Positions 16,855 to 63,859 are shown, counted from the first letter of the stretch. The stretch: 64,000 bases of DNA from an uncultured Bacteroidales bacterium (GCA_947305795.1 CAMZEK010000007.1:627-64626), one strand, 5' to 3'. Made by a program: numbers and translations. The notes: generated by a model not told the origin, from the letters alone.

Positions 16855-16890
16855 AATATAAGAGCTACATAGAAAACAGGTTCCTTTTTT

Positions 16891-17071
16891 AAATTTTAAA
16901 TCTTTGAATCTTTGAATTTTGAATCTTTGAATTTTGAATCTTTGAATTTTGAATCTTTGAATTTTGAATCTTTGAATCTTGAATCTTTGAATCTTTGAAT
17001 TTTGAATCTTTGAATCTTGAATCTTTGAATCTTGAATCTTTGAATCTTGAATCTTTGAATCTTTGAATATC
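16891..17071. repeat. 181-bp tandem array of 7/8-nt units (GAATCTTT / GAATTTT / GAATCTT), 15-bp higher-order period
   Basis: About 21 consecutive GAAT-initiated units from 16906 to 17064, plus degenerate flanking units. Lies in the intergenic gap 20 nt upstream of ATG 17092. Confidence 0.95.
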
Positions 17072-17091
17072 AAATCATTAAATCTACAAAT

Positions 17092-25776: not shown

Positions 25777-25827
25777 TGGTGTAGAATTTTAATTAATCGT
25801 TTCTTTTTCCATTTTGAATCAAGGGCG

Positions 25828-25835
25828 CAAATTTA
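25828..25835 (-). promoter_or_regulatory. Bacteroidota -7 promoter box (TAnnTTTG)
   Basis: Minus-strand TAAATTTG about 51 nt upstream of ATG 25776. Confidence 0.4.
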
Positions 25836-25878
25836 TACAAAAATCCAATATGCGAACCACTTTTGATTGACAAAAACA

Positions 25879-28434: not shown

Positions 28435-28460
28435 TGTATTAGGTATTTAGATTTAGCCTG

Positions 28461-28468
28461 CAAATATA
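28461..28468 (-). promoter_or_regulatory. Bacteroidota -7 promoter box (TAnnTTTG)
   Basis: Minus-strand TATATTTG about 26 nt upstream of ATG 28434, immediately after the terminator of the preceding paralogue. Confidence 0.5.
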
Positions 28469-28470
28469 AA

Positions 28471-28502
28471 CAAAAAAAGGAAATGCGCAAGGCATTTCCT
28501 TT
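28471..28502 (-). terminator. intrinsic terminator between C10 paralogues 3 and 2
   Basis: Minus strand: AAAGGAAATGC-CTTGC-GCATTTCCTTT (11-bp stem) followed by a TTTT tract, about 20 nt after the stop at 28524. Confidence 0.6.
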
Positions 28503-28523
28503 CTAAAAGTGGATGATTGGCTA

Positions 28524-30809: not shown

Positions 30810-30848
30810 TTTTTTGTTATTTTATTGTTGATTTCTGTTTTAAGGCTG

Positions 30849-30856
30849 CAAAAATA
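30849..30856 (-). promoter_or_regulatory. Bacteroidota -7 promoter box (TAnnTTTG)
   Basis: Minus-strand TATTTTTG about 39 nt upstream of ATG 30809. Confidence 0.45.
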
Positions 30857-30875
30857 ATCATCCTGGTGAAACGAA

Positions 30876-33800
30876 TTACATTTTCACCACTTTTTTGACC
30901 ATAGACCCTGCAGCGGCATTCACTTTGATGAAATACACGCCGTTCTGACAATCGCTCATGTCGATGACCGTCTTTCCGCCTTCACCCGCTTTCTCCACAA
31001 GACACTGGCCGACAAGGTTGTAGACCTCAACCGAGACCACATCCTTGGCTTCGACGGTCAGCATGCAGGAAGTCGGATTGGGATACAGCGCCATGCCGTT
31101 CGTCGCCTCAACGACGGACAAATTGCTGAACCTGATGAAGTCCTCACCTTCCTCGGTCAAGCCGTATTCCGACTCACAATCTGAATACACCGCCTTGACT
31201 TTGTAGGTCTTGTCCATTCCTTCGAGGTTAATGTCTTCTTCATAAAGATCATTACTGGGTGCTGGGAATGAAACGTCGGTAGTGTCACCCGCCAAATGGT
31301 CGATGACGGTAACGACGAAATGGTCGGGGATGCGCTCTTCGTAAGGATGGCTCCATGTAAGGCGAATCTTATCGGCAGGCTCTGACAAGCGCCTGAAGTC
31401 ATACGGTGCCGAACAAGGCAACGGATCTGCTTCGAAAACTACTGTGACCTCATTCGTCTCAAACCCATGATAATCTCCAGAAATGCCTTCAGGAGCAAAA
31501 GCCATCACCTTATAAACATAAGTACCTCCTGGCACCAAGTCTTCATTATCGGTATAGGTAACTCCCGTCACCTCATCTGAAAGCACCGTTCCATTGCGTA
31601 TAACACTGTATTTCATGTCCAAAGCTTGATAAATCGGTTCCCAAAACAGCGTGACCGACATGGCCTCTTCATCCGCTTTAGCAATCAGTTGAGGCTCAGT
31701 GGCATAATACTGTTCATTCGACCAATCCACTTTAACATAGAACTGTTCCTCATTGAAAAGACTGTTGGCATAAGCGGATGTGCAGTCAATATCCTGATAA
31801 TAAGCCACTACCGCGTATTTGTAGGGGGTTCCCGCCACAGCGGTGTTGTCCTTAAGGTTGGTCGCGGTCAACAATTTAACACGCTTGTAATCAGAGTCTT
31901 CCGTCTTGCGATAGACGATATAGCCCGTAATGTTCTCGTTTTCGGGTGCAGTCCAGTACAGTTGCACCTTATTATTATTGGTGTAGTTGAAATACAAGTT
32001 GGAAGGTGCTTCGCAGCCTGTACCAGAAGTGACGCAATACTCGTTGGAAGGGACCGTTTCGCCACCATTACACAAAGCCGTGATATAGTAACTATGGCCA
32101 CCGATTTCTGTGTTAACATCCACATACTGAGTTTCATGTGCCATGTTGAATAGGAAACCGTCACGATAGATGCAGTAGCCGAATTCTGGGGTATGGTCAC
32201 TATCCCATGTGAGGATGATGGTGCGGTCATTCTCGGGGTCGAGAGTGGCCTTCAAATTGTAAGGCGCCTCGCAGGTGTTCTCGTTGCCACAACCGTTGTT
32301 CAGGGTCTTGATGAGGCCGGGCTCCAGTCCCGACGAGGGGCCGTTATATTCATAAACAAGCTGGTTTTCAGCGTCTCTCACCTTGAAGGAAAGGTTGCTG
32401 ATGTTGGAATTGGGTGCAGTCCAATACAGGTTGTTGTTGCCCAAGGCCATCTGGAAGTTCTGTATGGTGGCCGTGGCTTGTGTGGTGGTCAGGAAGTCGA
32501 TGTAAGTGCCTGCAGCGTTCTGCACAGTGATACCGCCTCCGTCCCAGCCATGAAAATCGGTTGACGTCATGACGACTTTCCAAGTGCAATAGGGGCCAAA
32601 GACAGCTTTTGTAACGGTCGAGCGGCCATAAGTGTCAGCACCAACGGCCATTACCGTGTATTCGAACTGGTCGAAATAAGGCACTTCGTCGTCATAAGTC
32701 ATGGCCTGACCTGGTACAACACCCGTAATCTCCTGAACGACAAAGCCATTACGCTTTACAACGATCTTGTCAAGCGCAGTCAGGGCCTCCCCCGTCATGG
32801 TCTCAGTGGGATTCGTCCAACTGAGATGCCCAATCCGCGAAACATCGCTGTCGATACTCACGCTGAGGTTTTCGGGAGCTTTGGGCATTTGGTTGTAGAC
32901 GTAATTCGGAATGAAGTCATACACAATAGCCTGACTGCCAGAATATTCAAAGTTTTCGCCGTCGATGAGGAAATAGCCGTTGGAAGCGCCACCCCAACCC
33001 CAGTTGAAATAAAACAGGTCGTCCACATCATAGCCGTCGCAAACGAAGGCATGGCCGCCATCCGGACTTTGTCCAGAATAATACAGCGGGATATGCTGGT
33101 CGATGTTCGACTTCAACAAGGCTATCCACTCGTCATAAGTATGGCCGCTTTTGGAAATGTGTTCGGCATGTTCCGAATAGGAAAAATAAGTGCTGATAGC
33201 CGTGGGGACATCATCAGAGAATGCGCCGCTGCCGTCAGGGGCAAACATCATATTGACCGACACGCCACAATGGTACATCAACGTGGCCACAGCCTCCTTC
33301 TGTTCTTGTGTGGCGTTGCCATAATAATTCAGCATCTTGTCCCAAGCATAAGTGGTAGCACCAAAGTTGGCGTATTGCTCGCCATAGCCTATGGCATAAT
33401 AACTGTGCTCGCCCGTTCCCGTGACTGGCCATTCCCAGTACTTCATCAGTTGAGCCATCGCCGTGGCGACACAACCCGTCGGGCAACCTCCAGGGGCATA
33501 CATATTATAAGGAGCATCTTGGTTCCATTTCAACGGCACGAGTGGTCCCACCACGGGAGCACCACGGTCGGGATGAAGCACGCCGTAGGCTTCCAAGTTC
33601 TTCCAGCGGCAGATGATGTCGCTCGAAACGTTACCGCCTTGTTGCACAACGGTTTCAATGCCGTGAGAAAGTTCGTCCAGCATGAATCGAAGTCCGTCGG
33701 GAGCGGTTTCATAGTCGAACTGGCCTTGGTCGGAATAGCCGAGGATGGGCGACGAGCAGTCGTCAGCTGCCACAATGACAAAACCGCTGTTGAAGTTGAA

Positions 33801-34001
33801 GACGTAAGCCGTGGCCGTGCCATTAGTGGCACGACAGGTGTAGGCCAATTCAAGGTCATTCACCGCGTTTTTGGCAAACATGGCCTTGTGCTGGATGAAA
33901 TTGAGTCCCAAGCGTTGCGCTGTGCCCACTTCAACGGGGTTGGCTTTGAGGGTCGTCACGCCCAGAAGCAAGGCGAAGATAACAAGTAAATTTTTTCTCA
34001 T
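30876..34001 (-). CDS. C10 family cysteine peptidase with I69-type prodomain, extra Fn3/Ig-like modules and T9SS C-terminal domain, paralogue 4
   Basis: 'TAYVFNFNSGFVIVAADDCSSPILGYS', 'PTGCVATAMAQLMKYWEWP', 'GHAFVCDGYDVDDLFYFNWGWGG'. It is about 180-280 aa longer than its paralogues through additional beta-sandwich repeats. Tail 'LYPNPTSCMLTVEAKD...GVYFIKVNAAAGSMVKKVVKM'. Confidence 0.85.
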   Translation of the reverse strand: MRKNLLVIFALLLGVTTLKANPVEVGTAQRLGLNFIQHKAMFAKNAVNDLELAYTCRATNGTATAYVFNFNSGFVIVAADDCSSPILGYSDQGQFDYETAPDGLRFMLDELSHGIETVVQQGGNVSSDIICRWKNLEAYGVLHPDRGAPVVGPLVPLKWNQDAPYNMYAPGGCPTGCVATAMAQLMKYWEWPVTGTGEHSYYAIGYGEQYANFGATTYAWDKMLNYYGNATQEQKEAVATLMYHCGVSVNMMFAPDGSGAFSDDVPTAISTYFSYSEHAEHISKSGHTYDEWIALLKSNIDQHIPLYYSGQSPDGGHAFVCDGYDVDDLFYFNWGWGGASNGYFLIDGENFEYSGSQAIVYDFIPNYVYNQMPKAPENLSVSIDSDVSRIGHLSWTNPTETMTGEALTALDKIVVKRNGFVVQEITGVVPGQAMTYDDEVPYFDQFEYTVMAVGADTYGRSTVTKAVFGPYCTWKVVMTSTDFHGWDGGGITVQNAAGTYIDFLTTTQATATIQNFQMALGNNNLYWTAPNSNISNLSFKVRDAENQLVYEYNGPSSGLEPGLIKTLNNGCGNENTCEAPYNLKATLDPENDRTIILTWDSDHTPEFGYCIYRDGFLFNMAHETQYVDVNTEIGGHSYYITALCNGGETVPSNEYCVTSGTGCEAPSNLYFNYTNNNKVQLYWTAPENENITGYIVYRKTEDSDYKRVKLLTATNLKDNTAVAGTPYKYAVVAYYQDIDCTSAYANSLFNEEQFYVKVDWSNEQYYATEPQLIAKADEEAMSVTLFWEPIYQALDMKYSVIRNGTVLSDEVTGVTYTDNEDLVPGGTYVYKVMAFAPEGISGDYHGFETNEVTVVFEADPLPCSAPYDFRRLSEPADKIRLTWSHPYEERIPDHFVVTVIDHLAGDTTDVSFPAPSNDLYEEDINLEGMDKTYKVKAVYSDCESEYGLTEEGEDFIRFSNLSVVEATNGMALYPNPTSCMLTVEAKDVVSVEVYNLVGQCLVEKAGEGGKTVIDMSDCQNGVYFIKVNAAAGSMVKKVVKM

Positions 34002-55200: not shown

Positions 55201-56899
55201 GGTCGGAATCAATGCTATAAGTCTCGACTTTATCAACAATCTCCTGCGTATTTTCCAAGGCGAAAGGCACATCGGAGAAGATTCGGCCCATCTCCTCGGG
55301 CGTCTTCAGCCATTCCTGCTTGGTGTAATGCATCCGCGTTGGGTCGTCCAAGTCCTTGCCCGTGCTAAGGCAGATGAGACGGTCGTGCGCCTCGCCGTGT
55401 TCTTCTTCCACAAAGTGCACGTCGTTGGTCGCGATGACCTTCACATCGTATTTCTTCGCCAACTCCAAGAGGATTTTGTTCACCTCCTTCTGGCGTTCGT
55501 AAACCTCGGTGTCACCGCCAGGCTTGTCGGTCTTATGTCGCTGGATTTCAAGATAATAATCCTCACCAAAAAGATTCTTGAACCATTGTATCGATTCCTC
55601 CGCGCCCTTGAGGTCACCGTTCATGATTTTTTGCGGCACCTCGCCCGCCAAGCAAGCCGAGCTGCAAATCACGCCCTCGTGATACTGCTCCAAAAGGCTG
55701 TGGTCGATGCGGGGATTATAGTAAAAGCCTTCCGTGTAGGCGATGGAACTCAACTTGCATAGGCTGTGGTAGCCAGCCTTGTTCTTCGCCAATAAAATAA
55801 GGTGCCAACCACGATCCTGACGACCGTCGCGTTTGTCAATGCTGATGGGCGCACAATAAGTTTCCATGCCAAAAATCGGCTTGAAAAACTGTCCGTTCAA
55901 TTGGTCAATTTCCGCTTGGGCGGCGGCTTTTTCCTCATCGGTGGCCTCCACCTTATTTAATATGGCTTTCTGTGCCTTGATGGCATCCTTCACCTTCGTG
56001 TTCTCTTTGTTCACCGTGTCAGCGAAGTCCTTGATACCAAACATATTACCATGGTCAGTGAGGGCGAGGCTATACATGCCGTATTTCTTGCATTTTTCCA
56101 CCAAGTCGGGTACCTTCGACATGCCATCGAGCATGGAATAATGCGAGTGGACGTGCAGGTGCGTGAAGTGCTTCGGGACATAGTTGCCGATTTCAGGCAC
56201 CTCTTCTCCCTCTTCTTCGTCAACGATAGGCTCAAAAGTAATTCCAGCGGGCTGAATCATCTCAGGATTGGCCGCCTTGAACTCCTCGATGAACTGCGCG
56301 TCAACGCCCAAGTCGTTGGCATCCAACACGCCACGACGCACCAATTCGAGGAACACGCGTGCTGTGGCCTCCACGTCGGCAGCGGCATTGTGCGCCAAAT
56401 CGAACTTCTCGCCAAACAAGATTTGGTGGAACTCCTCTAAACGTGGCAACTTGAACTTGCCGCCCTTGCCGCCAGGCAGTTGGCAAAACTCGGCTGTTTT
56501 TTCGGTGCAAGTGTCTACTTTCTGCCAATTGGGTAGCGGATTCTCGCCTTTCTTGCGCATGAACTCGCAGCCAAGAATACAGAGGTCGAAGTCGATATTA
56601 TGCCCCACAAAGCGCGTGGCTTTCGAAGCCGACTGCAGGAAAATATCAAGCACCTCGGCTAACGGCTTGCCGTGCTCGGAGGCATATTTAGTGGAGATAT
56701 GATGCACCATCTTGGCATCGATAGGAATCTCAAAACCCTCAGGCTGAACGATATAGTTGTGCGCCTCCACGAAGCGACCCTTGTCGTCATGAATTTGCCA
56801 AGCCAGTTGCACCATGCGTGGCCAGTTGTCGAAGTCGGTCAGCGGCGCGTTGTAGTTTTTGGGAAGACCTGTGGTCTCGGTATCGAAGACTAGAAACAT
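52286..56899 (-). CDS. dnaE: DNA polymerase III alpha subunit (DnaE) with N-terminal DEDDh 3'-5' exonuclease (DnaQ-like) domain
   Basis: 1537 aa. Residues 1-190 carry ExoI 'VFDTETTGL', ExoII 'GHNIDFDLCIL' and ExoIII 'HNAAADVEA'. The PHP domain starts at 'THLHVHSHYSMLDG' (about aa 245), followed by a canonical DnaE body ('GFPGYFLIV', 'GPGRGSAAGS', 'LPDIDVDF'). Confidence 0.9.
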   Translation of the reverse strand: MFLVFDTETTGLPKNYNAPLTDFDNWPRMVQLAWQIHDDKGRFVEAHNYIVQPEGFEIPIDAKMVHHISTKYASEHGKPLAEVLDIFLQSASKATRFVGHNIDFDLCILGCEFMRKKGENPLPNWQKVDTCTEKTAEFCQLPGGKGGKFKLPRLEEFHQILFGEKFDLAHNAAADVEATARVFLELVRRGVLDANDLGVDAQFIEEFKAANPEMIQPAGITFEPIVDEEEGEEVPEIGNYVPKHFTHLHVHSHYSMLDGMSKVPDLVEKCKKYGMYSLALTDHGNMFGIKDFADTVNKENTKVKDAIKAQKAILNKVEATDEEKAAAQAEIDQLNGQFFKPIFGMETYCAPISIDKRDGRQDRGWHLILLAKNKAGYHSLCKLSSIAYTEGFYYNPRIDHSLLEQYHEGVICSSACLAGEVPQKIMNGDLKGAEESIQWFKNLFGEDYYLEIQRHKTDKPGGDTEVYERQKEVNKILLELAKKYDVKVIATNDVHFVEEEHGEAHDRLICLSTGKDLDDPTRMHYTKQEWLKTPEEMGRIFSDVPFALENTQEIVDKVETYSIDSDPIMPIFPIPEDFGTEAEYRQKYTEEDLFNEFTRDEHGNVVLSQEEAEKKVKKLGGYKRLYRIKLEADYLAKLTWDGAHERYGKDLTEEQIERIKFELHVMKTMGFPGYFLIVSDYIRAAREELGVSVGPGRGSAAGSVVAYCLKITDLDPLKYDLLFERFLNPDRISLPDIDVDFDDDGRERVLDWVTRKYGKEKVAHIITYGTMAAKSAIADVGRVQKVPLPEVNKIKSYIPDRNFDEAAVKAVEGTLPKKMPKVNLKNCYKYIPELHELLTGKDENISSMLTYAEELEDTNRQIGIHACGVIIGADDLTNVAPVCTVKDKDTKEDVVVTQYDGHVIETVGLIKMDFLGLKTLTLIKDTLKNIKRTRGIDIDIDHIPIDDKLTYDLYCSGNTIGTFQFESPGMQKYLRELQPSVIGDIIAMNALYRPGPMDNIPDFIARKQGRQEIKYDFDCMEKYLKDTYGICVYQEQVMLLSRELADFTRGESDTLRKAMGKKQLAKMEELYEKFMKQGVAKLTQTENLPEAEVKKRLEKIWEEWKKFASYAFNKSHAACYSWVSYQTAYLKAHYPAEFMAAVLNNELGDIKQVNFMTEECKRMKIAVLGPDVNESQYEFSVNEKGEIRYGMGGIKNVGEAAVAGIVAEREANGKFKDFGDFVMRIADKGLNVRALESMGMAGCFDSFKGFHRAMLFNIAPNESATFSEKAMRMVASFNERKNSAQMDLFGFGDQGGVEETFSIPLPDCEPWSKMKELEMEKEALGFYISAHPMEVYHLPLRYFANCTVEQLKAAQNDPERNIRRAVRLGGQITRAEERISKNGNAYGSFTIEDQTGAFQFSLFKENYLNCKNLLVLNEFVMLYGTLQAPFPRPGQDPNIMPSTLDVRFTEAKLLDSLLENTTKTVYIKLDITEMNKPEMDMFIKTVKENAGKQNYKVHLFNSKTKKSCNMTPRNGGINAQNILPLFEKMPFVEFDLR

Positions 56900-56936
56900 A
56901 ATCAGTTGAGAGTTGATAGTTTAGAGTTGAAAGTTG
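56900..56936 (-). promoter_or_regulatory. five perfectly phased AACTNNN heptads abutting the dnaE start codon
   Basis: The minus strand reads AACTTTC AACTCTA AACTATC AACTCTC AACTGAT T ATG. On the plus strand AGTT occurs at 56904, 56911, 56918, 56925 and 56932. Confidence 0.5.
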
Positions 56937-56965
56937 AGGCAAAATCCACCTCAAAAATCAGCCTT

Positions 56966-56973
56966 CAAAGATA
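56966..56973 (-). promoter_or_regulatory. Bacteroidota -7 promoter box (TAnnTTTG)
   Basis: Minus-strand TATCTTTG about 66 nt upstream of dnaE ATG 56899. Confidence 0.45.
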
Positions 56974-57006
56974 CGTGATTTTGGGAAACGGTGCAAGATG
57001 CTTGGA

Positions 57007-57510
57007 CTATTTCTTTTTGAAATTATTCCACATCTGTTTCACCATGCCAGCGATTTCTTCCCAAAACCAAACTGGTTCCAGCACTTCCATAGCATCACCA
57101 TTTTTTCTGTGGATTGAGTTGGCATATTGCGTCAGCTCATTACGAAGTTCAGGTTGCAAAGAAGTGTAATGAATACAGGCCACAAGCCAATCGAGAATCA
57201 CTTGACGATAGGCTTTGCCTTTGTATTCGATGCGCGAGAGGGCTTCAGTACGTTGGTCATTGAGGGTTAAACTAATCCGATTGTGCCCATGTTCAACGGC
57301 CATACTTCTGCCCTGATTGTCGACAATCATTAAGCTGGGACTTACTTGAGCGGTTTCACAATCAAAAGAGAATGGCCTTTTCTGCCGTATCACTTCATTG
57401 ACGAAGGCATACATGAAGACACGACCCATGCCATGCTCATCCTCGTGACTTAGCAGACGGGCGATAGTTGTAGTGTTGAATGTTTTCGATGCTATCGTTT
57501 TCATTTTCAT
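57007..57510 (-). CDS. hypothetical protein, third gene of the FtsZ-like operon
   Basis: 167-aa ORF with an ATG start and a 4-nt overlap with the upstream gene. I recognise no motif. It has a basic amphipathic C-terminus 'WFWEEIAGMVKQMWNNFKKK'. Confidence 0.45.
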   Translation of the reverse strand: MKMKTIASKTFNTTTIARLLSHEDEHGMGRVFMYAFVNEVIRQKRPFSFDCETAQVSPSLMIVDNQGRSMAVEHGHNRISLTLNDQRTEALSRIEYKGKAYRQVILDWLVACIHYTSLQPELRNELTQYANSIHRKNGDAMEVLEPVWFWEEIAGMVKQMWNNFKKK

Positions 57511-58199
57511 TTCCTTTTAAGCCTTTTGAAAAACGCTCTTATTCTTGAGGTTCTCTTTGTCGTTTGTTGTGGCTCTGGCAGGGCACGGATTAGGCATTTT
57601 GCTACTTCCGCCAACAAGTCATCGGCCTTTGTGAAGGCTTGGTTTATGGGCAAGTCGCAGTATTGTGTTTTGATGTACTGGTTGTTGAGCAGGAAGAGAG
57701 CATCCGTGTTTCTTGCCAAGTTTTGAATTCCTTCCGAGGCTTGCGAGAATCTGCGTTCGCCTTCCAATTCGAATGGCAAAGTGGCAAGGGCAATGGTCGT
57801 GATGCCCATCTTTTTTGACTCACGGGCGATTACGGGAGCAGCACCCGTGCCGCATCCACCTCCAAGACAGGTGACAACAAAGGTCATAGAAGGTTTGTCG
57901 TCGAATAGTTTCTTTATTGCATCTGTGTTTTCTTCAGTCGCGATGCGTGCTTTTTCGGGGCTATTGCCGCTTCCAAGTCCGTCTGTGCCGAGTTGTAGGG
58001 TCGTGGTGGCGACTGATTTCTCGAGTACTTTGGTATCCATGTCGCAGGCTACAAAGGAGAAACCTTCCAAATTGCTTTGGCTTATATGGTTGACGATATT
58101 GTTGCCGCCACAGCCAACGCCGATTACTTTAACGGTTGGCTTTATCGTTGAGGTTGCTTTTTTGTTCATAGTCGTTGTATTGTTATGAGATTTCAACAT
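57507..58199 (-). CDS. FtsZ/tubulin-superfamily GTPase-domain-only protein
   Basis: 230 aa. 'KVIGVGCGGNNIVNHI', 'GLGSGNSPEKARIATEE', 'CLGGGCGTGAAPVIA', 'TLPFELEGERR' and 'DALFLLNN' are colinear with E. coli FtsZ residues ~10-200. It ends after helix H7 with the basic tail 'RTSRIRAFFKRLKRK'. An alternative start is ATG 58169. Confidence 0.7.
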   Translation of the reverse strand: MLKSHNNTTTMNKKATSTIKPTVKVIGVGCGGNNIVNHISQSNLEGFSFVACDMDTKVLEKSVATTTLQLGTDGLGSGNSPEKARIATEENTDAIKKLFDDKPSMTFVVTCLGGGCGTGAAPVIARESKKMGITTIALATLPFELEGERRFSQASEGIQNLARNTDALFLLNNQYIKTQYCDLPINQAFTKADDLLAEVAKCLIRALPEPQQTTKRTSRIRAFFKRLKRK

Positions 58200-58851
58200 T
58201 CAGTTCGATATTGAAGTCGCGCACCCAAAGGAGGTCGAAAATGGCGAATTCCATGTGCTCGAAAAGGTCGTGGAATGCGAATATAAGATGCATGTCTTTT
58301 GTCAGTTTTCCGTCTAAACCCTCGTTCCAATTGTCCGTTTCTTCACTCAAATATAGCATTTGATGTTCGGATTCTATTGTTGGGACGGGGGAATGATAGG
58401 TGTCAATTCGGAATTGTCCGAATCCGTTATGGTACAAAGGAATAAAGTCATCGATTGTTCCATTCAGTATGTCCCACATCCGTTTGGCGCGTTCGTCTTG
58501 AATGGGATGCAAAGGAGGATAGTCGTAGCCGAAATAGCATTTGCCCTCCACTTCGATGGTTCCTGGCAATTCTGCTTTGGCCACCGACTCATAAAGTGCT
58601 ATAGTGCGTTTGCGCATCTCTATCATCTGTTGCTTCATGGCCTCGTTGAAGTCCTTGAGCAGTTGCAAATAATAGTCGTCCATCACGAACATTTCGTTTA
58701 AGATGGTTTTCCTGATGCTCAAAAGGTTTTGGATGGTTACTCTTCCTGTTTCCATGCCCCACATGCCTTTCTCGCTCTGTCGCTGGCAGTCGAGAATCAT
58801 GTACTCCACCTTCCTGACCGGCTGTGAGTTGTAGATTTCTTGTATGGTCAT
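58183..58851 (-). CDS. hypothetical protein, first gene of the FtsZ-like operon
   Basis: 222-aa ORF with an ATG start. Its stop overlaps the FtsZ-like start by 17 nt. I recognise no motif. Confidence 0.45.
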   Translation of the reverse strand: MTIQEIYNSQPVRKVEYMILDCQRQSEKGMWGMETGRVTIQNLLSIRKTILNEMFVMDDYYLQLLKDFNEAMKQQMIEMRKRTIALYESVAKAELPGTIEVEGKCYFGYDYPPLHPIQDERAKRMWDILNGTIDDFIPLYHNGFGQFRIDTYHSPVPTIESEHQMLYLSEETDNWNEGLDGKLTKDMHLIFAFHDLFEHMEFAIFDLLWVRDFNIELNVEIS

Positions 58852-58869
58852 AGTGCGTTACGATTTAAC

Positions 58870-58915
58870 GATGCAAAGAAAAAGAAAGCCTGTGCCGAAT
58901 TGAAGCACAGGCTTG
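58870..58915 (-). repeat. 46-nt hairpin / T-tract / near -7 box cassette, copy 1
   Basis: The minus strand reads CAAGCCTGTGC-TTCAATTCG-GCACAGGCTT TCTTTTTCTTTGCATC. It lies 22 nt after the HAD gene stop and about 18 nt before ATG 58851. Confidence 0.85.
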
Positions 58916-58936
58916 ACGACAAATGAAAAATTGTCC

Positions 58937-59482
58937 CTAACGGTTCAAAATGTTTATGGCTTCATAGGCCTTTTGGATGGTTAATCCATCGTTTTCATCG
59001 GTTTGAACCAAATGTCCCTGCTGACTATGGAAGAAGATGTTTTCATCGTCGAGAATGACATATTGGAATGGCGGTGTTGCACATTTATGCAACCATGCCT
59101 GGATCTCGAGCGCTTTAGCATTGCGTTCCGGGACGGACAACATTTCGCCGCTTTTAGCATCTTTGTATGTAGTGCTCAGAAGGATTGGTGTCATTGAAAA
59201 CAACTCATCAGGAAGGTTGCGGTCTTTCCATAACGCCTGCATTTTTATCCAGCCTTCGTTTCGCCAAGTGGAGGAAAGAACGATTTTACAGCCAGTATGA
59301 TCAACAATGTATTTAAGATTGCTTATAGTTTTGGGGTCGAACATGGCACCGAACTCATCATAATGGTCGATGCCTTCTTCTCTGAGCAGTTTGGCATAAC
59401 TGGTAGTGTTCAACACGCCATCAAAATCGAGAAAGAGGTACGTTAATTCTTTCTTTTTTAGATAATCTTTAAGCATACTCAT
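58937..59482 (-). CDS. HAD-superfamily phosphatase, stand-alone 'Swiss Army Knife RNA-repair' type HAD domain
   Basis: Motif I 'LFLDFDGVLN', motif II 'IVLSSTWR', motif IV 'YVILDDE'. 181 aa with no cap-domain insert that I can see. Confidence 0.6.
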   Translation of the reverse strand: MSMLKDYLKKKELTYLFLDFDGVLNTTSYAKLLREEGIDHYDEFGAMFDPKTISNLKYIVDHTGCKIVLSSTWRNEGWIKMQALWKDRNLPDELFSMTPILLSTTYKDAKSGEMLSVPERNAKALEIQAWLHKCATPPFQYVILDDENIFFHSQQGHLVQTDENDGLTIQKAYEAINILNR

Positions 59483-59504
59483 AATAAAAGCTAATATGTT
59501 GCGA

Positions 59505-59550
59505 GATGCAAAGAAAAAGAAAGCCTGTGCGGAATTGAAGCACAGGCTTG
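59505..59550 (-). repeat. 46-nt hairpin / T-tract / near -7 box cassette, copy 2
   Basis: Identical to copy 1 at 45 of 46 positions; the only difference is in the loop. It lies after the PD-(D/E)xK gene stop and about 22 nt before ATG 59482. Confidence 0.85.
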
Positions 59551-59581
59551 GGGAAATGTGTGTATAGTTGGCTAAAAAAAA

Positions 59582-60796
59582 CTAATTGTCATTATCTTTG
59601 ACAATGGCAATAGTTTCTTCGAAATGTTGATACACTTCATCAAACTGTTCAATATCAAAACTTTTATACATTTCTTTGCGGTCATTGCTGTGCGGCAGAT
59701 GCTCTTGCTGATTAAGGTCGTCATGATGAGGCTTTTTAAGCCTCTCTACTGTTGAACCAATAAGTTCTCTGTCTTGAACGGGCAGATTAAAGTCAAAATA
59801 GAAACCACTATAAAACTGTGCCCCATCGCAACCGATAGAAACGACAGCTCGTTTCCCTCGTATTCCATCTATGTTATCGAACGTTACATCCGTTATTACC
59901 CACCCTTTTCCACTACCCTCACTAACTTTATTAGGCTCCAGTTTAGAGTATTTTTCTGCTGTTTTCTTTTTCCATGTTTCGTAAATGTTTTTGCGATAAT
60001 CCTCAATCATTTTATTCATTTGTTGAGAAACCTCATTAATACTATCGCTTTTTTCTCGCAAAAAAGAAATACATTCCTTATCGCTTTTTTCTGATAAGTC
60101 AAATTGCTTAATGATTAACTTTTGTAATTCTTTGTTCATTGGTTCGTCTATGTTTCTTATTTTGAATAATCCTTCGAGGTAATCAATATATTGAATGATA
60201 GCTGACTGTAGAAACTGTTCTTTGCACTCAATACACGGCATAACTTTGTCTTTCAGCCATGGTAAAATGTCATAGCAATAGGACAAATTTACATATCTTG
60301 AACGAAAGCTGTCTTTATATTCGCCCCATGATTGCGGCTCTGGCTCTTTGGGGTATTGGGAAAGATAGACGACAAAAATCTGGTTTTTGTTATAGTCATG
60401 CTTTAAGGTTTTCCCAATGTAGTTACTCAATTGAGCCTCTCTATCATCTGCATTATAGATTTTGTTCTCAAAAATAATGGCATAATTCTTATCCATTACC
60501 CATAAATCAATGCGTTCTTTCTCTTGTGTGATTTTTGGAGATTCAATAGTGATTTTGCCGAAATCTCCTGAAAGCCTTTCTTTAATTAGGTCTATTAAAG
60601 AAGTCAAAAAAACATATTTGCCATTTTCGTTTGTATAGGATAATAAATGCATCAAAATCCGGCTGTGAGCGTTTTCGTTGATGTGCAACTGGTCCACCAA
60701 ATTTAAATGAAAGGGTAACTTTTTCTGTTCTTCTTCTTTGATTTTTGAAAACTCAGATGCGAAATTCCATAAGTCTGATAATTGTTGTTCATTCAT
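59582..60796 (-). CDS. PD-(D/E)xK nuclease family protein (PDDEXK_4-like)
   Basis: 404 aa. N-terminal 'ENAHSRILMHLLSY' followed by 'RIDLWVMDKNYAIIFENKIY' (D...ExK core). The gene is AT-rich. Confidence 0.6.
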   Translation of the reverse strand: MNEQQLSDLWNFASEFSKIKEEEQKKLPFHLNLVDQLHINENAHSRILMHLLSYTNENGKYVFLTSLIDLIKERLSGDFGKITIESPKITQEKERIDLWVMDKNYAIIFENKIYNADDREAQLSNYIGKTLKHDYNKNQIFVVYLSQYPKEPEPQSWGEYKDSFRSRYVNLSYCYDILPWLKDKVMPCIECKEQFLQSAIIQYIDYLEGLFKIRNIDEPMNKELQKLIIKQFDLSEKSDKECISFLREKSDSINEVSQQMNKMIEDYRKNIYETWKKKTAEKYSKLEPNKVSEGSGKGWVITDVTFDNIDGIRGKRAVVSIGCDGAQFYSGFYFDFNLPVQDRELIGSTVERLKKPHHDDLNQQEHLPHSNDRKEMYKSFDIEQFDEVYQHFEETIAIVKDNDN

Positions 60797-60834
60797 ATTT
60801 AATTGTTGCTACTTTATTGTTGATATTCTGAAGA

Positions 60835-61248
60835 TTAATTCATCTTATTCCATTGGTGATACCCGCCCGAAGGGCAGTCAAATGCATTGGGCGACTTTGA
60901 GGCATACAACAGAAGGCCACATTTTTTGCATTGATAGACATCGGTGCCTATCGGACATAAATCTTGCCAATTATGGTAGCCTCCAGCAGTGCATCCAAAA
61001 GAAGATGGGGTGTTCTTGCTTTCAACGAGAAGACCGCATTTCTTGCATCGGTAGTTTTCGCAACCGACTTCGCCGAGGTCGTTCCAATCGTGGTAGTTTC
61101 CAGCCCGACAATTGAACGCATTGGGCTGTCGCTCTGTTTTAATCAGAATGCCACATTTCTTGCATTGATAGTTTTTCATAGGCGGCCAGGTTGGGTTTTG
61201 CATTTGTAAGCATAAAGCCAGTATGATATTTGCAGCAAAGGTAATCAT
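60835..61248 (-). CDS. protein with three tandem CCCH zinc-ribbon-like repeats
   Basis: 137 aa. Three ~39-aa units 'Y[QR]CKKCG[IL]L...P..F.C..G.YH.W' (C-x2-C-x14-C-x5-H). Hydrophobic N-terminus 'MITFAANIILALCLQ'. Alternative starts at M16 and M24. Confidence 0.5.
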   Translation of the reverse strand: MITFAANIILALCLQMQNPTWPPMKNYQCKKCGILIKTERQPNAFNCRAGNYHDWNDLGEVGCENYRCKKCGLLVESKNTPSSFGCTAGGYHNWQDLCPIGTDVYQCKKCGLLLYASKSPNAFDCPSGGYHQWNKMN

Positions 61249-61285
61249 TTCTATGAAACAAACGGGATTTTGAAAAAAACTGCGA

Positions 61286-61957
61286 TTACTTGACTATCCA
61301 GTATTCCCTCAAAAGTCTTTCAAACTTCTGTTTCCCGTTTCCGTTTCGATGATTCCACGAAAAGTGAACGGCAGGGTGATTGACGAAATCAATCGGAATA
61401 TCATAAGACAATCCATTCAAGCCCATGTACTTCATAAATTCCGAGTGTGCATATTTGCTGACGAATATGACTACATCAGGTTGGTCGAGTTCAATGATTC
61501 CACATAATGCGCTGCCTGCCACATCACGGTCCAATTGGGAGCAATCTTTTTTGAATGATCTATTGTTTTTCCTCACCGTGGCTGGACGCAGAAAATAATT
61601 ATAGAACATGGCCTCCTCATAGACATGCTCACAAAGTGTTTCTTTCAACACTTCATTCATGGATTTACACAATCTATCAAAAGTCTTATATCCTTTGTAG
61701 TTGCTTACATCTTCCTTTTTTACTTCTGGTATCAAATGTTGTTTGTCCGCACCCTTATACCACGCCTGTGGGTCTTTAAACACACTATCGACACCATCGT
61801 CAAAATAGTTGCTTTCTCCAACTATCAACAGTTTTTTATGTTTGGTGCTGTTCCAATAATTCTCCAAAGAAGCAGGAACGAGTTCGGTGAATCTCACGAA
61901 GATGCCTTCCTTGACAATCTGGTCTTTTCCGATGTTTACATACTTATTGTTTTCCAT
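61286..61957 (-). CDS. hypothetical protein with uracil-DNA glycosylase superfamily-like motif order
   Basis: 223 aa. 'KLLIVGESNYF' (cf. family-4 motif A GEAPG), 'FYNYFLRPA' (cf. N-x4-RP), 'QPDVVIFVSKYA' (cf. P-x-[IV]-[IV]-x-LG-x-x-A) and 'VNHPAVHF' (cf. motif B HPS/HPA). This is motif-order similarity only. Confidence 0.4.
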   Translation of the reverse strand: MENNKYVNIGKDQIVKEGIFVRFTELVPASLENYWNSTKHKKLLIVGESNYFDDGVDSVFKDPQAWYKGADKQHLIPEVKKEDVSNYKGYKTFDRLCKSMNEVLKETLCEHVYEEAMFYNYFLRPATVRKNNRSFKKDCSQLDRDVAGSALCGIIELDQPDVVIFVSKYAHSEFMKYMGLNGLSYDIPIDFVNHPAVHFSWNHRNGNGKQKFERLLREYWIVK

Positions 61958-62028
61958 ATTTTATTGATTTTATTGTATTTAGAGTTTGTTTTTCGTTTGT
62001 TTATTTATGTCAACTCGATCGTTTTTTC

Positions 62029-62073
62029 GCTGCAAAGAAAAAGCAAGCTTGTGCAGAATCGCAGCACAGGCTG
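62029..62073 (-). repeat. hairpin / T-tract / near -7 box cassette, diverged copy 3
   Basis: The minus strand reads CAGCCTGTGC-TGCGATTCT-GCACAAGCTT GCTTTTTCTTTGCAGC, about 72 nt upstream of ATG 61957. No minus-strand gene ends upstream of it. Confidence 0.7.
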
Positions 62074-62115
62074 TAATAAAACTTCAAAAAATGCTACGAT
62101 TCGTTTTTTTATTTC

Positions 62116-62123
62116 TACTTTTG
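62116..62123 (+). promoter_or_regulatory. Bacteroidota -7 promoter box (TAnnTTTG)
   Basis: TACTTTTG about 23 nt upstream of ATG 62147. Confidence 0.5.
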
Positions 62124-62146
62124 CAACCGAACAAAATACCTCCAAA

Positions 62147-62467
62147 ATGGAATACGAAGAAAACAACAATCCCGTCAGCATGGCTTCAGAACCTTCCGCC
62201 GCGTTGTATTATGGCTCAAGTACCAAACTCAGGGAAAGCGGCATCATCCCACAATTGTCTCACCTTGACAAGTCGGACACAATTTGGATTATCCGTTTTT
62301 TGCAACTGCAATTGGAACAGATGAGAGCAAAAGAGAACAATCTTCAAGAACAAGACATCGACCCGATGTTTGGGCTGGATTTCCTGAAAAGCATCCACAA
62401 AGACGTGCCCGATTTTGAGCAACTGAGAACTGAACATTTCCTTGACAAATATGGCATTGTATTATGA
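62147..62467 (+). CDS. putative antitoxin partner of the PIN toxin
   Basis: 106 aa starting at MEYEENNNP. ATGA overlap with the PIN gene. The track ORF (from 61625) is over-extended antisense into the neighbouring gene. I recognise no DNA-binding motif. Confidence 0.45.
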   Translation: MEYEENNNPVSMASEPSAALYYGSSTKLRESGIIPQLSHLDKSDTIWIIRFLQLQLEQMRAKENNLQEQDIDPMFGLDFLKSIHKDVPDFEQLRTEHFLDKYGIVL

Positions 62468-62910
62468 AGGTATTTCTCGACACCAATATTTTTGTTGAAT
62501 ACATTTATGAAAGAGAGCAATTTGCATCTGTTCAACGCATATTCAAAGCCATAAAGAACAAACAAATTGATGGAATCACTTCACACGCCACGTTTTACAC
62601 TTTGGCATATCTCTCCGACCAGATGTTAAAACACAAAGGAATCCATCGTCCAGAATTGACTGAACAAACCCGTGGAATTGTTCGTAGTATGCTTCAACTT
62701 GTTCCTGTTGGAAACATGGATTACGCTGACATGATTACAGGAGTTGATGACACTACATTTTCTGACATTGAGGACAGTTTTCAATACCAATGTGCCTTGC
62801 GAAACCGATGCGATTATCTAGTCACCATCAACATCAAAGATTTCCCAAATGTGCCACAAACATTGATGGAAATATTGACACCAAACGATTTCGTCGCGAA
62901 AGTCCTTTAA
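62464..62910 (+). CDS. PIN domain ribonuclease (VapC-like toxin)
   Basis: 'MKVFLDTNIFVEYI' (first acidic residue), 'DIEDSFQYQCA' and 'DYLVTINIKDF'. 148 aa. Confidence 0.8.
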   Translation: MKVFLDTNIFVEYIYEREQFASVQRIFKAIKNKQIDGITSHATFYTLAYLSDQMLKHKGIHRPELTEQTRGIVRSMLQLVPVGNMDYADMITGVDDTTFSDIEDSFQYQCALRNRCDYLVTINIKDFPNVPQTLMEILTPNDFVAKVL

Positions 62911-62968
62911 CTATAACCCAACACCCATCACTTCTTTTTTCAGCCAAAACCGCAAACCAGAACAGGCT

Positions 62969-63859
62969 TCACCCCTCCTCCTCCGGCTCCACATGAATAG
63001 AAATGTGCGTCTCCTCGCCGTAGCGTTCTTTCAGCAGGTGTTCCACCTCGGAGGCTTTATCGTGGGCTTCCTTCAGCGGGATGTCGCCGTCCATGAGGAT
63101 GTGCATCTCGATGGCGTAATGGTTGCCGATGCGTCGGGTGCAGAGATCGTGTGGCTCACTGACCCCCTGCACGCACTTCACGATGTCCAGAATCTCGTTC
63201 TCCACCTCCTCCGGCAACGACTGTTCCATCAGCTCGCCCATGCCGTTCTTGAGCAAGTCGATGGCCACCTTGACGATGAGTGCACCCACAGCGATGGAGG
63301 CAATCGGGTCGAGAACGGCCCAACGCTCACCCAACAGGATGGCACCGCCGATGCCGATGGCCGTCCCGACTGACGACAAAGCATCGCTGCGATGGTGCCA
63401 AGCGTTGGCCTTCATCGCCTGCGAGTCCAACTGTTCAGCTTTGCGTTTGGTGTATTGGAAAGTCAACTCTTTCAGCAAGATAGAAACCAAAGCCGCCACA
63501 AGTGCCAGTATCCCTGGCTGGGTCAAATTGCCGCCCTTGGCCCAAAAAGCAATCTTCTTGGCCCCATCGACGAAGATGCCCACGGCGACCGCAAACAGCG
63601 CGATGCCAATGAGGGTGGTCGCCAGGGTCTCGAACTTGCCGTGACCATAGTCGTGCGACTTGTCCTTGGGTTTGTGGCTGATGCGCACGAAAGCCAAGAC
63701 GATGATGTCAGTGACAAAATCCGACACCGAATGCACCGCGTCGGCAATCATGGCGGAACTGTGGCCGATGATGCCCGCCACAAACTTGAACACCACCAGC
63801 ACCACATTGACCGCGCTACCCCAAAGGGTCACTTTATAAACTTCTTTTTCCCTATCCAT
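62969..63859 (-). CDS. cation diffusion facilitator family transporter
   Basis: 296 aa. 'SSAMIADAVHSVSDFVTD', 'HDYGHGKFE' and 'NAWHHRSDALSS' are CDF signatures. It has a cytoplasmic C-terminal domain. Confidence 0.9.
   Translation of the reverse strand: MDREKEVYKVTLWGSAVNVVLVVFKFVAGIIGHSSAMIADAVHSVSDFVTDIIVLAFVRISHKPKDKSHDYGHGKFETLATTLIGIALFAVAVGIFVDGAKKIAFWAKGGNLTQPGILALVAALVSILLKELTFQYTKRKAEQLDSQAMKANAWHHRSDALSSVGTAIGIGGAILLGERWAVLDPIASIAVGALIVKVAIDLLKNGMGELMEQSLPEEVENEILDIVKCVQGVSEPHDLCTRRIGNHYAIEMHILMDGDIPLKEAHDKASEVEHLLKERYGEETHISIHVEPEEEG

Follow-up and report, generated by a model that had tools for sequence, protein, structure and literature searches.

A candidate junction module in a hypervariable array of defence-type cassettes from a rumen Bacteroidales genus

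A short element combining a palindrome with a promoter-like box occurs three times on the minus strand of a 64,000-nt stretch of DNA from an uncultured Bacteroidales bacterium (hereafter the window). We put the probability at roughly 55%, for the best explanation taken as a whole, that it is the junction module of a hypervariable array of co-oriented, defence-type cassettes in one uncultured rumen Bacteroidales genus. Judging from sequence comparisons, the element probably gives each cassette its own promoter and a putative binding site for a shared regulator, and probably serves as a common crossover point for cassettes. The module is built from a palindrome of 25-29 bp, whose centre lies about 33 nt upstream of the expected start, a T-rich spacer and a -7 box.

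Three copies in the window

The copies lie at 58870-58915, 59505-59550 and 62029-62073. Copies 1 and 2 share 45 of their 46 positions and differ only in the last loop base, and copy 3 reaches 88% over 42 nt; we thereby reproduced the coordinates and the match given in an earlier, sequence-only reading. On the minus strand every copy consists of AAGCCTGTGC, a 9-nt loop and GCACAGGCTT, followed by TCTTTTTCTTTGCA. The 25-nt core pattern gives three matches against 0.34 expected by chance, and the full elements score 65-77 bits (E about 1e-12 to 1e-15). A search of the genome's own 2.56-Mb, 80%-complete assembly found these three copies and no further ones. The features are as follows.

57007..58851, minus: unit 3, behind copy 1, encoding a 222-aa protein, a 230-aa GTPase-only FtsZ/tubulin homologue and a 167-aa protein
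58860..58917, minus: element copy 1 (77.2 bits; -17.9 kcal/mol, z -4.8), with hairpin 5' arm 58914-58905, loop 58904-58896, 3' arm 58895-58886, T-tract 58885-58882, -7-like box TTTCTTTG at 58881-58874 and a GCATC extension to 58870
58937..59482, minus: unit 2, behind copy 2, a lone 181-aa HAD_SAK_2 phosphatase gene between copies 2 and 1
59495..59552, minus: element copy 2 (64.8 bits; -16.7 kcal/mol, z -5.0), with hairpin 59549-59521 and box 59516-59509
59582..61957, minus: unit 1, behind copy 3, three genes
59582-60796, minus: PDDEXK_4 nuclease, 404 aa, unit 1, PADLOC candidate PDC-S26
60835-61248, minus: triple zinc-ribbon protein, 137 aa, unit 1
61286-61957, minus: UDG-like gene, 223 aa, unit 1
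62019..62076, minus: element copy 3, first of the array (66.5 bits; z 0.3), with palindrome 62072-62046 carrying a C.A mismatch, box TTTCTTTG at 62040-62033 and GCAGCG to 62028
62147..62910, plus: divergent neighbour of copy 3, an antitoxin/PIN pair
62147-62467, plus: antitoxin-like ORF, 106 aa
62464-62910, plus: PIN toxin

Copy 1 follows the HAD stop codon by 21 nt and copy 2 follows the PDDEXK_4 stop by about 32 nt. The next minus-strand ATG, belonging respectively to the operon of the 222-aa protein and the half-FtsZ, the HAD gene and the UDG-like gene, lies 18, 22 and 71 nt beyond copies 1, 2 and 3, in agreement with the 18-72 nt previously claimed. Copy 3 has no co-oriented gene upstream, as had also been remarked: about 900 nt there are free of minus-strand genes, and its nearest neighbour is the plus-strand antitoxin/PIN pair, which has its own TACTTTTGC box at about 62116-62124.

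The genes carried in the cassettes are defence-like (GmrSD, PLD/DrmC-like, IetA-like AAA, PDC-S26, Fic, AAA_15/21). The UDG-like label derives from a weak UDG-superfamily match of a sister family, not of the window gene's own family. In unit 3, the 167-aa protein ends in a 31-residue WCX tail (57007-57099) copied from the gene of a WYL regulator, and homology in relatives begins at 57102. Parts of the layout recur elsewhere: the element-HAD-element block in two genomes (G033 and G125) at about 91-92% identity, an adjacency of HAD, element and family F3 in G142 at 96%, and the junction of toxin-antitoxin pair and element seen at copy 3 in G133.

Promoter-like box and array architecture

That the tail of the element contains a Bacteroidota -7 box had been proposed from the window, and comparison with the genome's own promoters strengthens the proposal. 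The tail, CTTTGCAGCG..AAA, agrees with the genome's extended -7 consensus TAnnTTTGCAGC, which is found 141 times genome-wide; of the 120 occurrences on contigs of 20 kb or longer, 85% are intergenic, lying a median of 35 nt ahead of an ATG. The corresponding median for the box across the element family is 31 nt, and element and genomic consensus alike continue with AAA at +1 to +3. Conservation runs 15-25 nt past the stem into GCAGCG..AAA, the genome's promoter consensus. One position deviates: the element has T at -13, where the genome-wide consensus needs A, and the TT variant TTnnTTTGCAGC is intergenic in 30% of cases as against 85% for TA. No -33 TTTG was found at the canonical distance from the box. 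We infer that the element would act as the promoter of the unit downstream, using the taxon's extended -7 (TTTCTTTGCAGCG, then AAA) about 31 nt before the unit's first ATG. Probably it is a weak promoter or one that depends on a factor, since T replaces A-13 and the palindrome takes the place of the usual upstream A-tract.

We ran a covariance model of the element against 150 same-genus genomes and against 150 further genera in the order. The element is present in 86 of the 150 same-genus genomes at 1-11 copies each, with about one strong match across the other genera. Within the genus, copies mostly cluster on one contig and in a minority of genomes lie on 2-3 contigs. The arrays were mapped for 110 copies at 25 loci in 24 genomes, where the pattern is a co-oriented series of element, unit, element, unit and so on, ending in an element and a WYL regulator. 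A co-oriented gene directly follows the element in 106 of 109 copies, a divergent gene precedes it in 19 of 110 (mostly first-of-array copies in the locus maps), and at none of the 25 mapped loci does an element stand behind the last unit. The element therefore marks 5' ends rather than 3' ends, so that a conclusion initially drawn from copy 3 holds across the whole set. The setting is chromosomal: purB, an ABC transporter, GH20, psuG/psuK, the WYL gene and an exonuclease form conserved flanks, dnaE also borders arrays, and we found no phage match.

Probable recombination at the junctions

The hairpin and T-tract are 0.79 identical between unrelated junctions, 0.85 between junctions sharing only the upstream family, 0.85 between those sharing only the downstream family and 0.95 where both are shared. 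The 5' arm tracks the upstream cassette, while the 3' arm and tail track the downstream cassette; the T-tract tracks both equally strongly, and crossovers therefore appear spread over the element instead of being fixed in the spacer. Homology blocks between species end at 58913-58927, 59547-59556, 62072, 58861 and 62021. The end at 62072 recurs in six genomes, and G133 shares the toxin-antitoxin pair and copy 3 down to 62021. Chimeric inheritance of the copies, together with block ends at the element's edges, points to crossover within the element, as in the phage modules discussed below. We propose that crossovers occur there because the element is the only sequence common to unrelated cassettes; homologous exchange in it would move cassettes between positions, loci and species. 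At 46-58 nt, the element is short for RecA-type recombination.

The near-identity of copies 1 and 2 had been attributed to recent spread of a small promoter-carrying module, to gene conversion or to a shared operator. Our comparison of cassettes in relatives, a check that had been proposed, uncovered shuffled units and blocks ending at the element within a genus in which 86 of 150 genomes carry it. The arrays, chimeric inheritance and block ends favour spread of a module whose promoter activity is predicted. We saw no array-wide gene conversion among copies of the element, but copies 1 and 2 are locally homogenised relative to their orthologues in G125 and G142.

Comparable modules exist in T4-like phages as promoter-early stem-loops (PeSLs), composite terminator/promoter cassettes for which experiments have demonstrated promoter activity, termination and mini-circles (PMC2839356, PMC4122927). 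Like our element, PeSLs combine a short conserved intergenic stem-loop with a promoter and recur in front of non-essential genes where genomes are hyperplastic; their copies recombine, which accounts for the insertions, deletions and replacements seen among relatives, and the cassettes carry their own expression signals. The element shares by prediction the combination of stem-loop and consensus promoter immediately before the following ORF, and it repeats in a hyperplastic region where recombination between copies accounts for the differences among relatives. It lies in rumen Bacteroidales chromosomes and not in a T4-like phage genome, has a Bacteroidota -7 box instead of a sigma-70 early -35/-10 promoter with an AT-rich UP region, measures about 50 rather than about 100 nt, and is known from prediction whereas PeSL function is known from experiment. 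The invariant palindromic core of the element's stem-loop and the WYL regulator gene linked to it suggest a role as operator, which is not known for PeSLs.

Two other kinds of repeat deserve consideration. The element could be a site-specific recombination site, attC-, dif- or lox-like, at which a recombinase encoded elsewhere excises and inserts cassettes. This would suit the 10-bp arms around a conserved asymmetric 9-nt spacer, the direct orientation of all sites, the n+1 sites for n cassettes and the breakpoints at the element, and integron arrays likewise line up unrelated small units in one orientation between palindromic repeats, their content varying between relatives at a fixed chromosomal site. 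Yet scans of array contigs in five genomes found no tyrosine recombinase (PF00589) on them within tens of kb, and the window's own genome has two in total; the conserved flanks are metabolic genes and the others listed above, from purB to the exonuclease. Crossover points are dispersed over the element, and tyrosine recombinase spacers are usually 6-8 bp, shorter than the 9 nt here. Where integrons have an adjacent intI and attI, 55-140-nt attC sites with R/L boxes and promoterless cassettes, these arrays have no integrase that we could find, a 29-nt hairpin without such boxes and a promoter-like box for each unit, and GTTRRRY cores are absent from two of the three window copies. We therefore judge a dedicated recombination site very unlikely. 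A selfish REP- or MITE-like repeat, sitting by chance in intergenic DNA, would also be short, palindromic and repeated, but such families are scattered through a genome in tens to hundreds of copies, as against three here and at most 11 elsewhere, confined to 1-3 loci. The element is moreover single-oriented throughout and directly upstream of a gene, and we saw neither target-site duplications nor a transposase. A generic genome-wide REP element had been named as one outcome that would overturn the reading; since the 80%-complete genome holds only three copies, that objection fails, and we give this account almost no credence.

Palindrome, hairpin and WYL regulator

The palindrome core TGTGC-N9-GCACA is almost invariant and centred near -33; in full, GCCTGTGC-N9-GCACAGGC is 25 bp and spans about -46 to -20. 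Among 114 distinct copies the inner five pairs are 91-100% invariant, and the outer pairs are unpaired in 12-21%. Anchor copies, those before the WYL gene, retain the core despite weak hairpins (-5 to -9 kcal/mol), and first-of-array copies keep the palindrome although nothing there needs termination. In many relatives the main locus has its anchor immediately before the WYL(-WCX) gene or the operon of that gene. The regulator beside the arrays carries WYL and WCX domains; its model aligns full-length with DriD, PafBC, CapW and BrxR, and its N-terminal winged-helix part has a pLDDT of 80-93. Five WYL subfamilies in the genus correspond to five palindrome variants at the same position, a co-variation confounded by the shared ancestry of these promoters. 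Most have the geometry TRTGC-N9-GCAYA, 3-11 nt before the -7 box, and the most distant subfamily (about 41%) has an N5 spacer. Linkage between element and regulator follows from their shared locus and is therefore not independent evidence. In the window's own genome the WYL gene is on a separate contig, C30, which is cut within the gene at its 5' end. In another genus, a genome that is 98% complete contains one good copy of the element but, 19 kb away, only a WYL gene of 40% identity, and in two same-genus genomes the element adjoins WYL fragments only.

We predict that the palindrome is an operator of this wHTH-WYL-WCX regulator, whose own gene, at the end of the main array, would bear TATCTTTGC, the ancestral copy with the best consensus. 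In that case the array as a whole would be one regulon responding to the regulator's ligand; by homology to DriD, PafBC, CapW and BrxR, candidate cues are ssDNA or phage or DNA damage. A shared operator for co-regulation, the third of the earlier suggestions, is thus favoured at the level of predicted binding, on the strength of subfamily-specific palindromes and an adjacent regulator.

Known WYL operators offer a useful comparison. In BrxR operators, repeats of 10-11 bp face each other across a 5-bp spacer; these sites are found at promoters (PMC9122589, PMC9122601), overlying the -35 in Acinetobacter (PMC9122589) and lying just downstream of the predicted -10 in pEFER, where two R-boxes control two promoters of one island (PMC9122601). 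The palindrome resembles such operators. As with BrxR/CapW R-boxes, a wHTH-WYL-WCX gene lies beside defence genes and an inverted repeat of about 25 bp (20-27 bp in the class) overlaps or abuts promoters, the regulator's own included, and the site co-varies with the regulator, subject to the ancestry confounder. The arrays differ in having up to 11 boxes, one for every cassette and always joined to a fixed promoter and T-tract, and in a core spacing of TGTGC-N9-GCACA as against 10/11-5-10/11. In fold, the array regulator stands no further from the activators DriD and PafBC, its closest structural relatives (at under 20% sequence identity), than from the repressors BrxR and CapW. DriD and PafBC are WYL activators that sense ssDNA and have palindromic sites in several promoters, their own among them, and DriD induces a cell-division inhibitor (PMC9186387). 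PafBC promoters lack a functional -35 much as the element lacks a -33 motif, and arrays often end in a GTPase-only FtsZ homologue, a parallel to DriD. The DriD and PafBC regulons are made up of dispersed DNA-damage genes, in contrast to a contiguous array of shuffling cassettes.

Conservation of a palindrome might instead reflect termination. Each copy had been assigned a GC-rich hairpin, and this stands for copies 1 and 2 (z about -5) but not for copy 3, which with its C.A mismatch folds no better than shuffled sequence. Across 110 copies the median energy is -15.8 kcal/mol and the median distance from stop codon to hairpin 27 nt; a hairpin and U-tract follow a co-oriented gene in copies 1 and 2 and in 91 of the 110, while copy 3, the anchors and the 19 first-of-array copies are not so placed or not so stable. 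Transcribed from upstream, palindrome and T-tract would form a terminator-like hairpin insulating the units. Sense-strand G.U pairs equal C.A pairs in the stems (26 and 25), hence there is no RNA-strand bias, and the inner five pairs are invariant, not covarying. What covariation there is, 16 double-change cells where 5.6 were expected, fits a hairpin and a symmetric protein site equally well. The suggested second role of copies 1 and 2 as terminators is a prediction, and the wobble counts reveal no selection for an RNA hairpin.

The copies might simply be Rho-independent terminators of the preceding genes, alike through recent local duplication, with TTTG as part of the U-tract. Copies 1 and 2 look canonical, 21-32 nt past stop codons, and most elements share with Bacteroides terminators (PMC7366714) a GC-rich hairpin and U-rich tract directly past a stop. 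We find this very improbable, given that copy 3 and 19 of the 110 family members have no co-oriented gene to terminate, that the last units carry no element behind them, and that conservation, which concerns sequence beyond mere pairing, extends into the promoter consensus and is common to about 86 species at cassette junctions. More serious is a PeSL-like junction of promoter and terminator that binds no regulator, with the palindrome conserved as a terminator and by recombination re-using the same linker. The strong predicted hairpins of copies 1 and 2, the promoter-consensus match, chimeric inheritance and block ends all hold under it, and three genomes (G298, G069 and G096) carry the element without an intact F2-type WYL gene. 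Against it, the stem top is invariant whereas the stem base, on which a terminator depends, varies and frequently fails to pair; G.U pairs show no excess; the core is kept in anchor and first-of-array copies where a terminator is unneeded or the hairpin weak; and palindrome variants are specific to WYL subfamilies. We consider it possible but on the whole unlikely, and retain the junction module with an operator as our preferred reading.

If crossovers use the element, each new cassette would join the regulon automatically. We tentatively suggest, as a plausible though doubtful extension, integron-like capture without an integrase, in which the operator-promoter of a WYL sensor-regulator is copied before each acquired defence cassette. 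About 50 nt would then serve as an address for homologous insertion, a switch for a phage- or DNA-damage-inducible regulon and an insulator, with the GTPase-only FtsZ as a member of that regulon. Were this so, the FtsZ homologue may act as an inducible brake on division, like didA under DriD.

Copies of the junction module and their genomic setting

The sequence-only reading had placed three co-oriented copies of a short hairpin-and-promoter element, here called E, in the window, and all three positions were confirmed exactly. Copies 1 and 2 are distinguished by one nucleotide, the final one of the loop. Each copy reads, on the gene strand (minus), AAGCCTGTGC-(9 nt)-GCACAGGCTT-TCTTTTTCTTTGCA. 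Following transcription, from high to low coordinates, the locus contains:

CDF transporter, then a divergent antitoxin/PIN pair
62029-62073, minus: E copy 3
behind copy 3: UDG-like 223-aa gene, triple zinc-ribbon protein, PDDEXK_4 nuclease (PADLOC candidate PDC-S26)
59505-59550, minus: E copy 2
behind copy 2: HAD_SAK_2 phosphatase
58870-58915, minus: E copy 1
behind copy 1: 222-aa protein, GTPase-only FtsZ homologue, 167-aa protein; dnaE next

Predicted folding energies were -17.9 kcal/mol for copy 1 and -16.7 kcal/mol for copy 2 (z about -5); copy 3, which has a C.A mismatch, is no more stable than shuffled sequence. Pattern search, blastn-short and a covariance model found no fourth copy in the 2.56-Mb, 80%-complete assembly, and therefore the concern that E might be a genome-wide REP element falls away. 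Rfam returned no match within 56500-63000, blastn against 50,697 phage records, a test of phage origin, gave no hit, and an exact-protein context lookup with the HAD gene returned no record. An attC-like GTTRRRY core occurs only after copy 1, by chance.

Relatives carry the element in far longer series. In a 6-kb DNA search the 46-mer came up repeatedly inside individual loci of same-genus genomes, and the covariance model (R1, built from 43 copies) found 1-11 copies in 86 of 150 genomes of the genus and one strong match among 150 genomes that each represent a different other genus of the order. The bearers are MAGs of uncultured Bacteroidales from the rumen of cattle, goat and red deer. We mapped 110 full copies in 25 loci of 24 genomes, calling genes as longest-ATG ORFs with a custom script; the copies are related by descent and their counts are not independent, and alignment A2 was fitted to the model. 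Within each mapped locus every copy has one orientation, and arrays run E-unit-E-unit-...-E-(WYL regulator, DEDDh exonuclease), with units of 1-5 genes that are reshuffled between species. A reading of the window's locus as an array of shuffled anti-phage cassettes was tested and holds. Products of the units include AAA (IetA-like) and FtsK-like ATPases, AAA_15/21 ATPases beside some PLD nucleases, PLD nuclease (DrmC-like), GmrSD/DUF262, Fic, DUF6140, UDG-like, PDDEXK_4 and HAD_SAK_2 proteins, and the 222-aa/half-FtsZ operon. On one flank of the main locus are purB, an ABC transporter, GH20 and psuG/psuK, with the WYL gene opposite; the window locus (CDF-TA / array / dnaE) is a secondary site, and three genomes (G033, G133, G139) use a third.

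Across loci L016-L051, the array very often ends in an operon of the 222-aa protein, a GTPase-only FtsZ and a ~146-aa protein, directly before the E copy that precedes the WYL gene (the anchor copy). In the window, the 167-aa gene upstream of dnaE (57007-57510, minus) is a chimera: residues 1-137 match the family that follows half-FtsZ in relatives, and the final 31 share 61-67% identity with the WCX tail at the C-terminus of the WYL regulator. Another contig of the same assembly (C30:28230-32346), which ends inside the WYL N-terminus, carries the full gene for this regulator together with its DEDDh exonuclease. The chimera and the contig cut point to a rearrangement or an assembly break at the array end. 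Elsewhere in the window, a tandem 7/8-nt unit (TTTGAATC / TTTTGAATC; 15-nt period, about 14 copies) at 16858-17121 directly precedes an ATG at about 17090 and might allow phase variation by slipped-strand mispairing, and about 23500-34000 (minus) holds 3-5 tandem paralogous genes of about 2.4-3.2 kb each (families D3-D13) with segments 60-80% identical.

Promoter-like tail and palindrome

The proposal that E tracks gene starts held up among the mapped copies: 106 of 109 precede a co-oriented gene, and no copy follows the last unit of any array in the 25 loci. A divergent gene lies upstream of 19 of 110 copies, mostly the first of an array, like copy 3. The median distance is 27 nt from the preceding stop codon to the hairpin and 31 nt from the box G to the ATG.

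The sequence TAnnTTTGCAGC occurs 141 times in the window's assembly. On contigs of at least 20 kb it is 85% intergenic, compared with 9% of the sequence, and it precedes a co-oriented ATG by a median of 35 nt or stands immediately ahead of tRNA genes. Aligned, these promoters show phased A-tracts followed by G-TAttTTTGCAGC-s-n-n-AAA. For Bacteroidetes the published consensus has TAnnTTTG at -7 and, less strongly, TTTG at -33 (PMC7366714). The conserved tail of E, TTTCTTTGCAGCGTrAAA, agrees with the genome's own consensus in the box, in its GCAGC extension and in the AAA where initiation is expected, bearing out the -7 box first proposed from sequence. In E the 3' arm of the palindrome replaces the A-tract at -24 to -20. 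A canonical -33 TTTG was rejected, as the loop TTCG/TTTG lies 14 nt before the box rather than 18-21 and the TTTG of the T-tract is far too close. Anchor copies, before the WYL gene or its operon, carry TATCTTTGC without a mismatch; almost every non-anchor copy has T at -13, and such TT variants are only 30% intergenic genome-wide. We interpret the cassette copies as weak or factor-dependent promoters, a prediction, and put the probability that E is a promoter at about 0.75.

The taxon's general promoter consensus, G-TAyyTTTGCAGC-s-nn-AAA with A/T tracts phased at about -53, -42 and -22, is longer than the textbook TAnnTTTG and is useful for start-site annotation in these MAGs. The antitoxin/PIN operon has its own consensus box TACTTTTGC (window 62075-62147), ~23 nt ahead of the start codon. 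The palindrome of copy 3 is ~45 nt upstream of this box, so one factor bound there could affect both divergent promoters.

The palindrome could act as an RNA stem, ending transcripts of the preceding unit, or as a protein site. In 114 distinct copies the five inner pairs (TGTGC/GCACA) are 91-100% unchanged, and the four outer pairs, at the stem base, are unpaired in 12-21%. The base of the stem is the part that matters most for a terminator. Double changes exceed shuffled expectation (16 cells versus 5.6), which fits a hairpin or a symmetric site alike. Selection on RNA would be expected to favor transitions that keep a sense-strand G.U pair, and that excess is absent (26 versus 25 for C.A). 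Anchor copies keep the core with weak predicted hairpins (-5 to -9 kcal/mol), and at the start of arrays, where no upstream unit calls for a terminator, the palindrome is nearly as well preserved as elsewhere. Hairpins of these first copies were only slightly weaker (medians -14.5 versus -16.9, p = 0.075), and the idea that the hairpin is strong only where a terminator is needed was not supported. With the box G set at -7, the palindrome reaches from about -46 to -20, centered at -33. Taken together, it behaves more like a protein site than an RNA stem; terminator activity of most copies is, as a prediction, still somewhat favored.

The linked WYL regulator

The gene behind the anchor copy encodes WYL and WCX domains. 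A single-sequence AlphaFold model was unusable (pLDDT 33), and a 46-sequence alignment gave a usable N-terminal three-helix and wing domain (pLDDT 80-93). A sequence search of this domain against solved structures returned no match; by sequence the closest solved relative of the regulator is DriD, and the whole model matched full-length DriD, PafBC, CapW and BrxR by Foldseek (probability 1.0, E 1e-10 to 1e-5). Regulators of this family bind 20-27 bp palindromes at promoters, their own included (PMC9122589, PMC9122601, PMC9186387): the BrxR(Acin) operator covers the -35 with 10-bp half-sites spaced by 5 bp (PMC9122589), the two R-boxes of pEFER BrxR serve two promoters (PMC9122601), DriD has a 20-bp palindrome in several promoters, and PafBC promoters lack a -35 (PMC9186387).

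Each WYL subfamily in the genus has its own palindrome at equal distance from the -7 box:

F2-type (the subfamily of the multi-copy arrays): GCCTGTGC-N9-GCACAGGC
57-61% identical: ACATGTGC-N9-GCACATGT
~54% identical (G079; also G036): GCTTGTGC...GCACAAGT
53% identical (G094, G095): AGGTATGCCC-N5-GGGCATACCT = TATGC-N9-GCATA, 25 nt before the WYL ATG
41% identical: AGAACTATGC-N5-GCATAGTTCT

Genomes with the 57-61% type hold only 1-3 copies of E, and the multi-copy array is therefore an expansion within the F2-type clade that apparently started from the operator-promoter of the regulator itself. Against a linkage to WYL stand G298 (another genus, 98% complete), where one good copy has only a 40%-identical WYL gene 19 kb off; G069 and G096, whose copies adjoin WYL fragments only; and the window's own genome, whose WYL gene is on contig C30, ending inside the gene. 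We give even odds to the prediction that the palindrome is a WYL operator. DriD induces a cell-division inhibitor (PMC9186387), and half-FtsZ might by analogy play that part here.

The G298 copy (G298:C37:36803-36860, locus L029; 64 bits) has a PLD-like fragment on one side and a 280-aa gene on the other. Its host belongs to another genus and family within the order and has no F2-type WYL, and the copy is probably part of a horizontally transferred cassette. In the window's assembly, contig C31 (minus) carries a second, diverged junction-like family at 3571-3628, 7429-7486 and 10819-10876: AAGCCTGTACC-GTGATTT-GGAACAGGT, then TATTTTTGCAGCGT. These three co-oriented modules, 3.3-3.9 kb apart and each before a gene, may be a second regulon or array; a similar palindrome adjoins a 41%-identical WYL paralogue in G026.

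Probable exchange at the junctions and its meaning

We compared junctions over the hairpin and T-tract:

Identity of E by shared neighbors
unrelated, same genome: 0.793
unrelated, different genomes: 0.790
upstream gene family alone shared: 0.846
downstream gene family alone shared: 0.847
upstream and downstream families shared: 0.949

Gene conversion had been offered to explain near-identical copies. Array-wide it fails, since unrelated junctions are equally similar within and between genomes (0.793 versus 0.790), and there is thus no array-wide concerted evolution. A local form fares better: copies 1 and 2, 635 bp apart, agree at two positions where their G125 orthologues differ, among them the private GCATC of copy 1 (GCAGC in G125 and G142), which suggests conversion between the two copies.

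The 5' arm of E tracks the upstream family, the 3' arm and tail track the downstream family, and the loop and T-tract track both equally, from which we infer that E copies are chimeras with crossover points distributed along the element. This pattern favors homologous exchange over site-specific cutting at one fixed point. Blocks of BLAST similarity shared by the window and its relatives stop at E edges (58913-58927 in five genomes, 62072 in six; further ends at 59547-59556, 58861 and 62021). An integrase-driven array was also considered; in the 5 genomes scanned no tyrosine recombinase lies near the arrays, and the window's genome has only two in total. That E serves as a crossover linker is, on these patterns, likely.

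In the model we propose, E would be the promoter of the following unit, a probable WYL operator that in read-through RNA would also form a terminator-like hairpin, and the common homology by which cassettes move; all functional statements on E are predictions. E would work like the promoter-early stem-loop (PeSL) of T4-like phages (PMC2839356, PMC4122927) crossed with a BrxR-type R-box, although in the strict sense it lies outside both families.

Defense islands are mosaic, and some are WYL-controlled. To our knowledge, integrons and phage hotspots aside, there is little explanation of how new defense systems slot in with neighboring genes left undisturbed, or of how they are brought under shared control. 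In these abundant, uncultured rumen bacteria, a single short sequence at a chromosomal locus seems to answer both questions. If this is confirmed, any gene that follows an E would be a defense candidate, the covariance model would be a handle for harvesting uncharacterized candidates from rumen metagenomes, and E would offer a compact regulated promoter/terminator part for Bacteroidota; it would also extend the phage PeSL principle to bacterial immunity.
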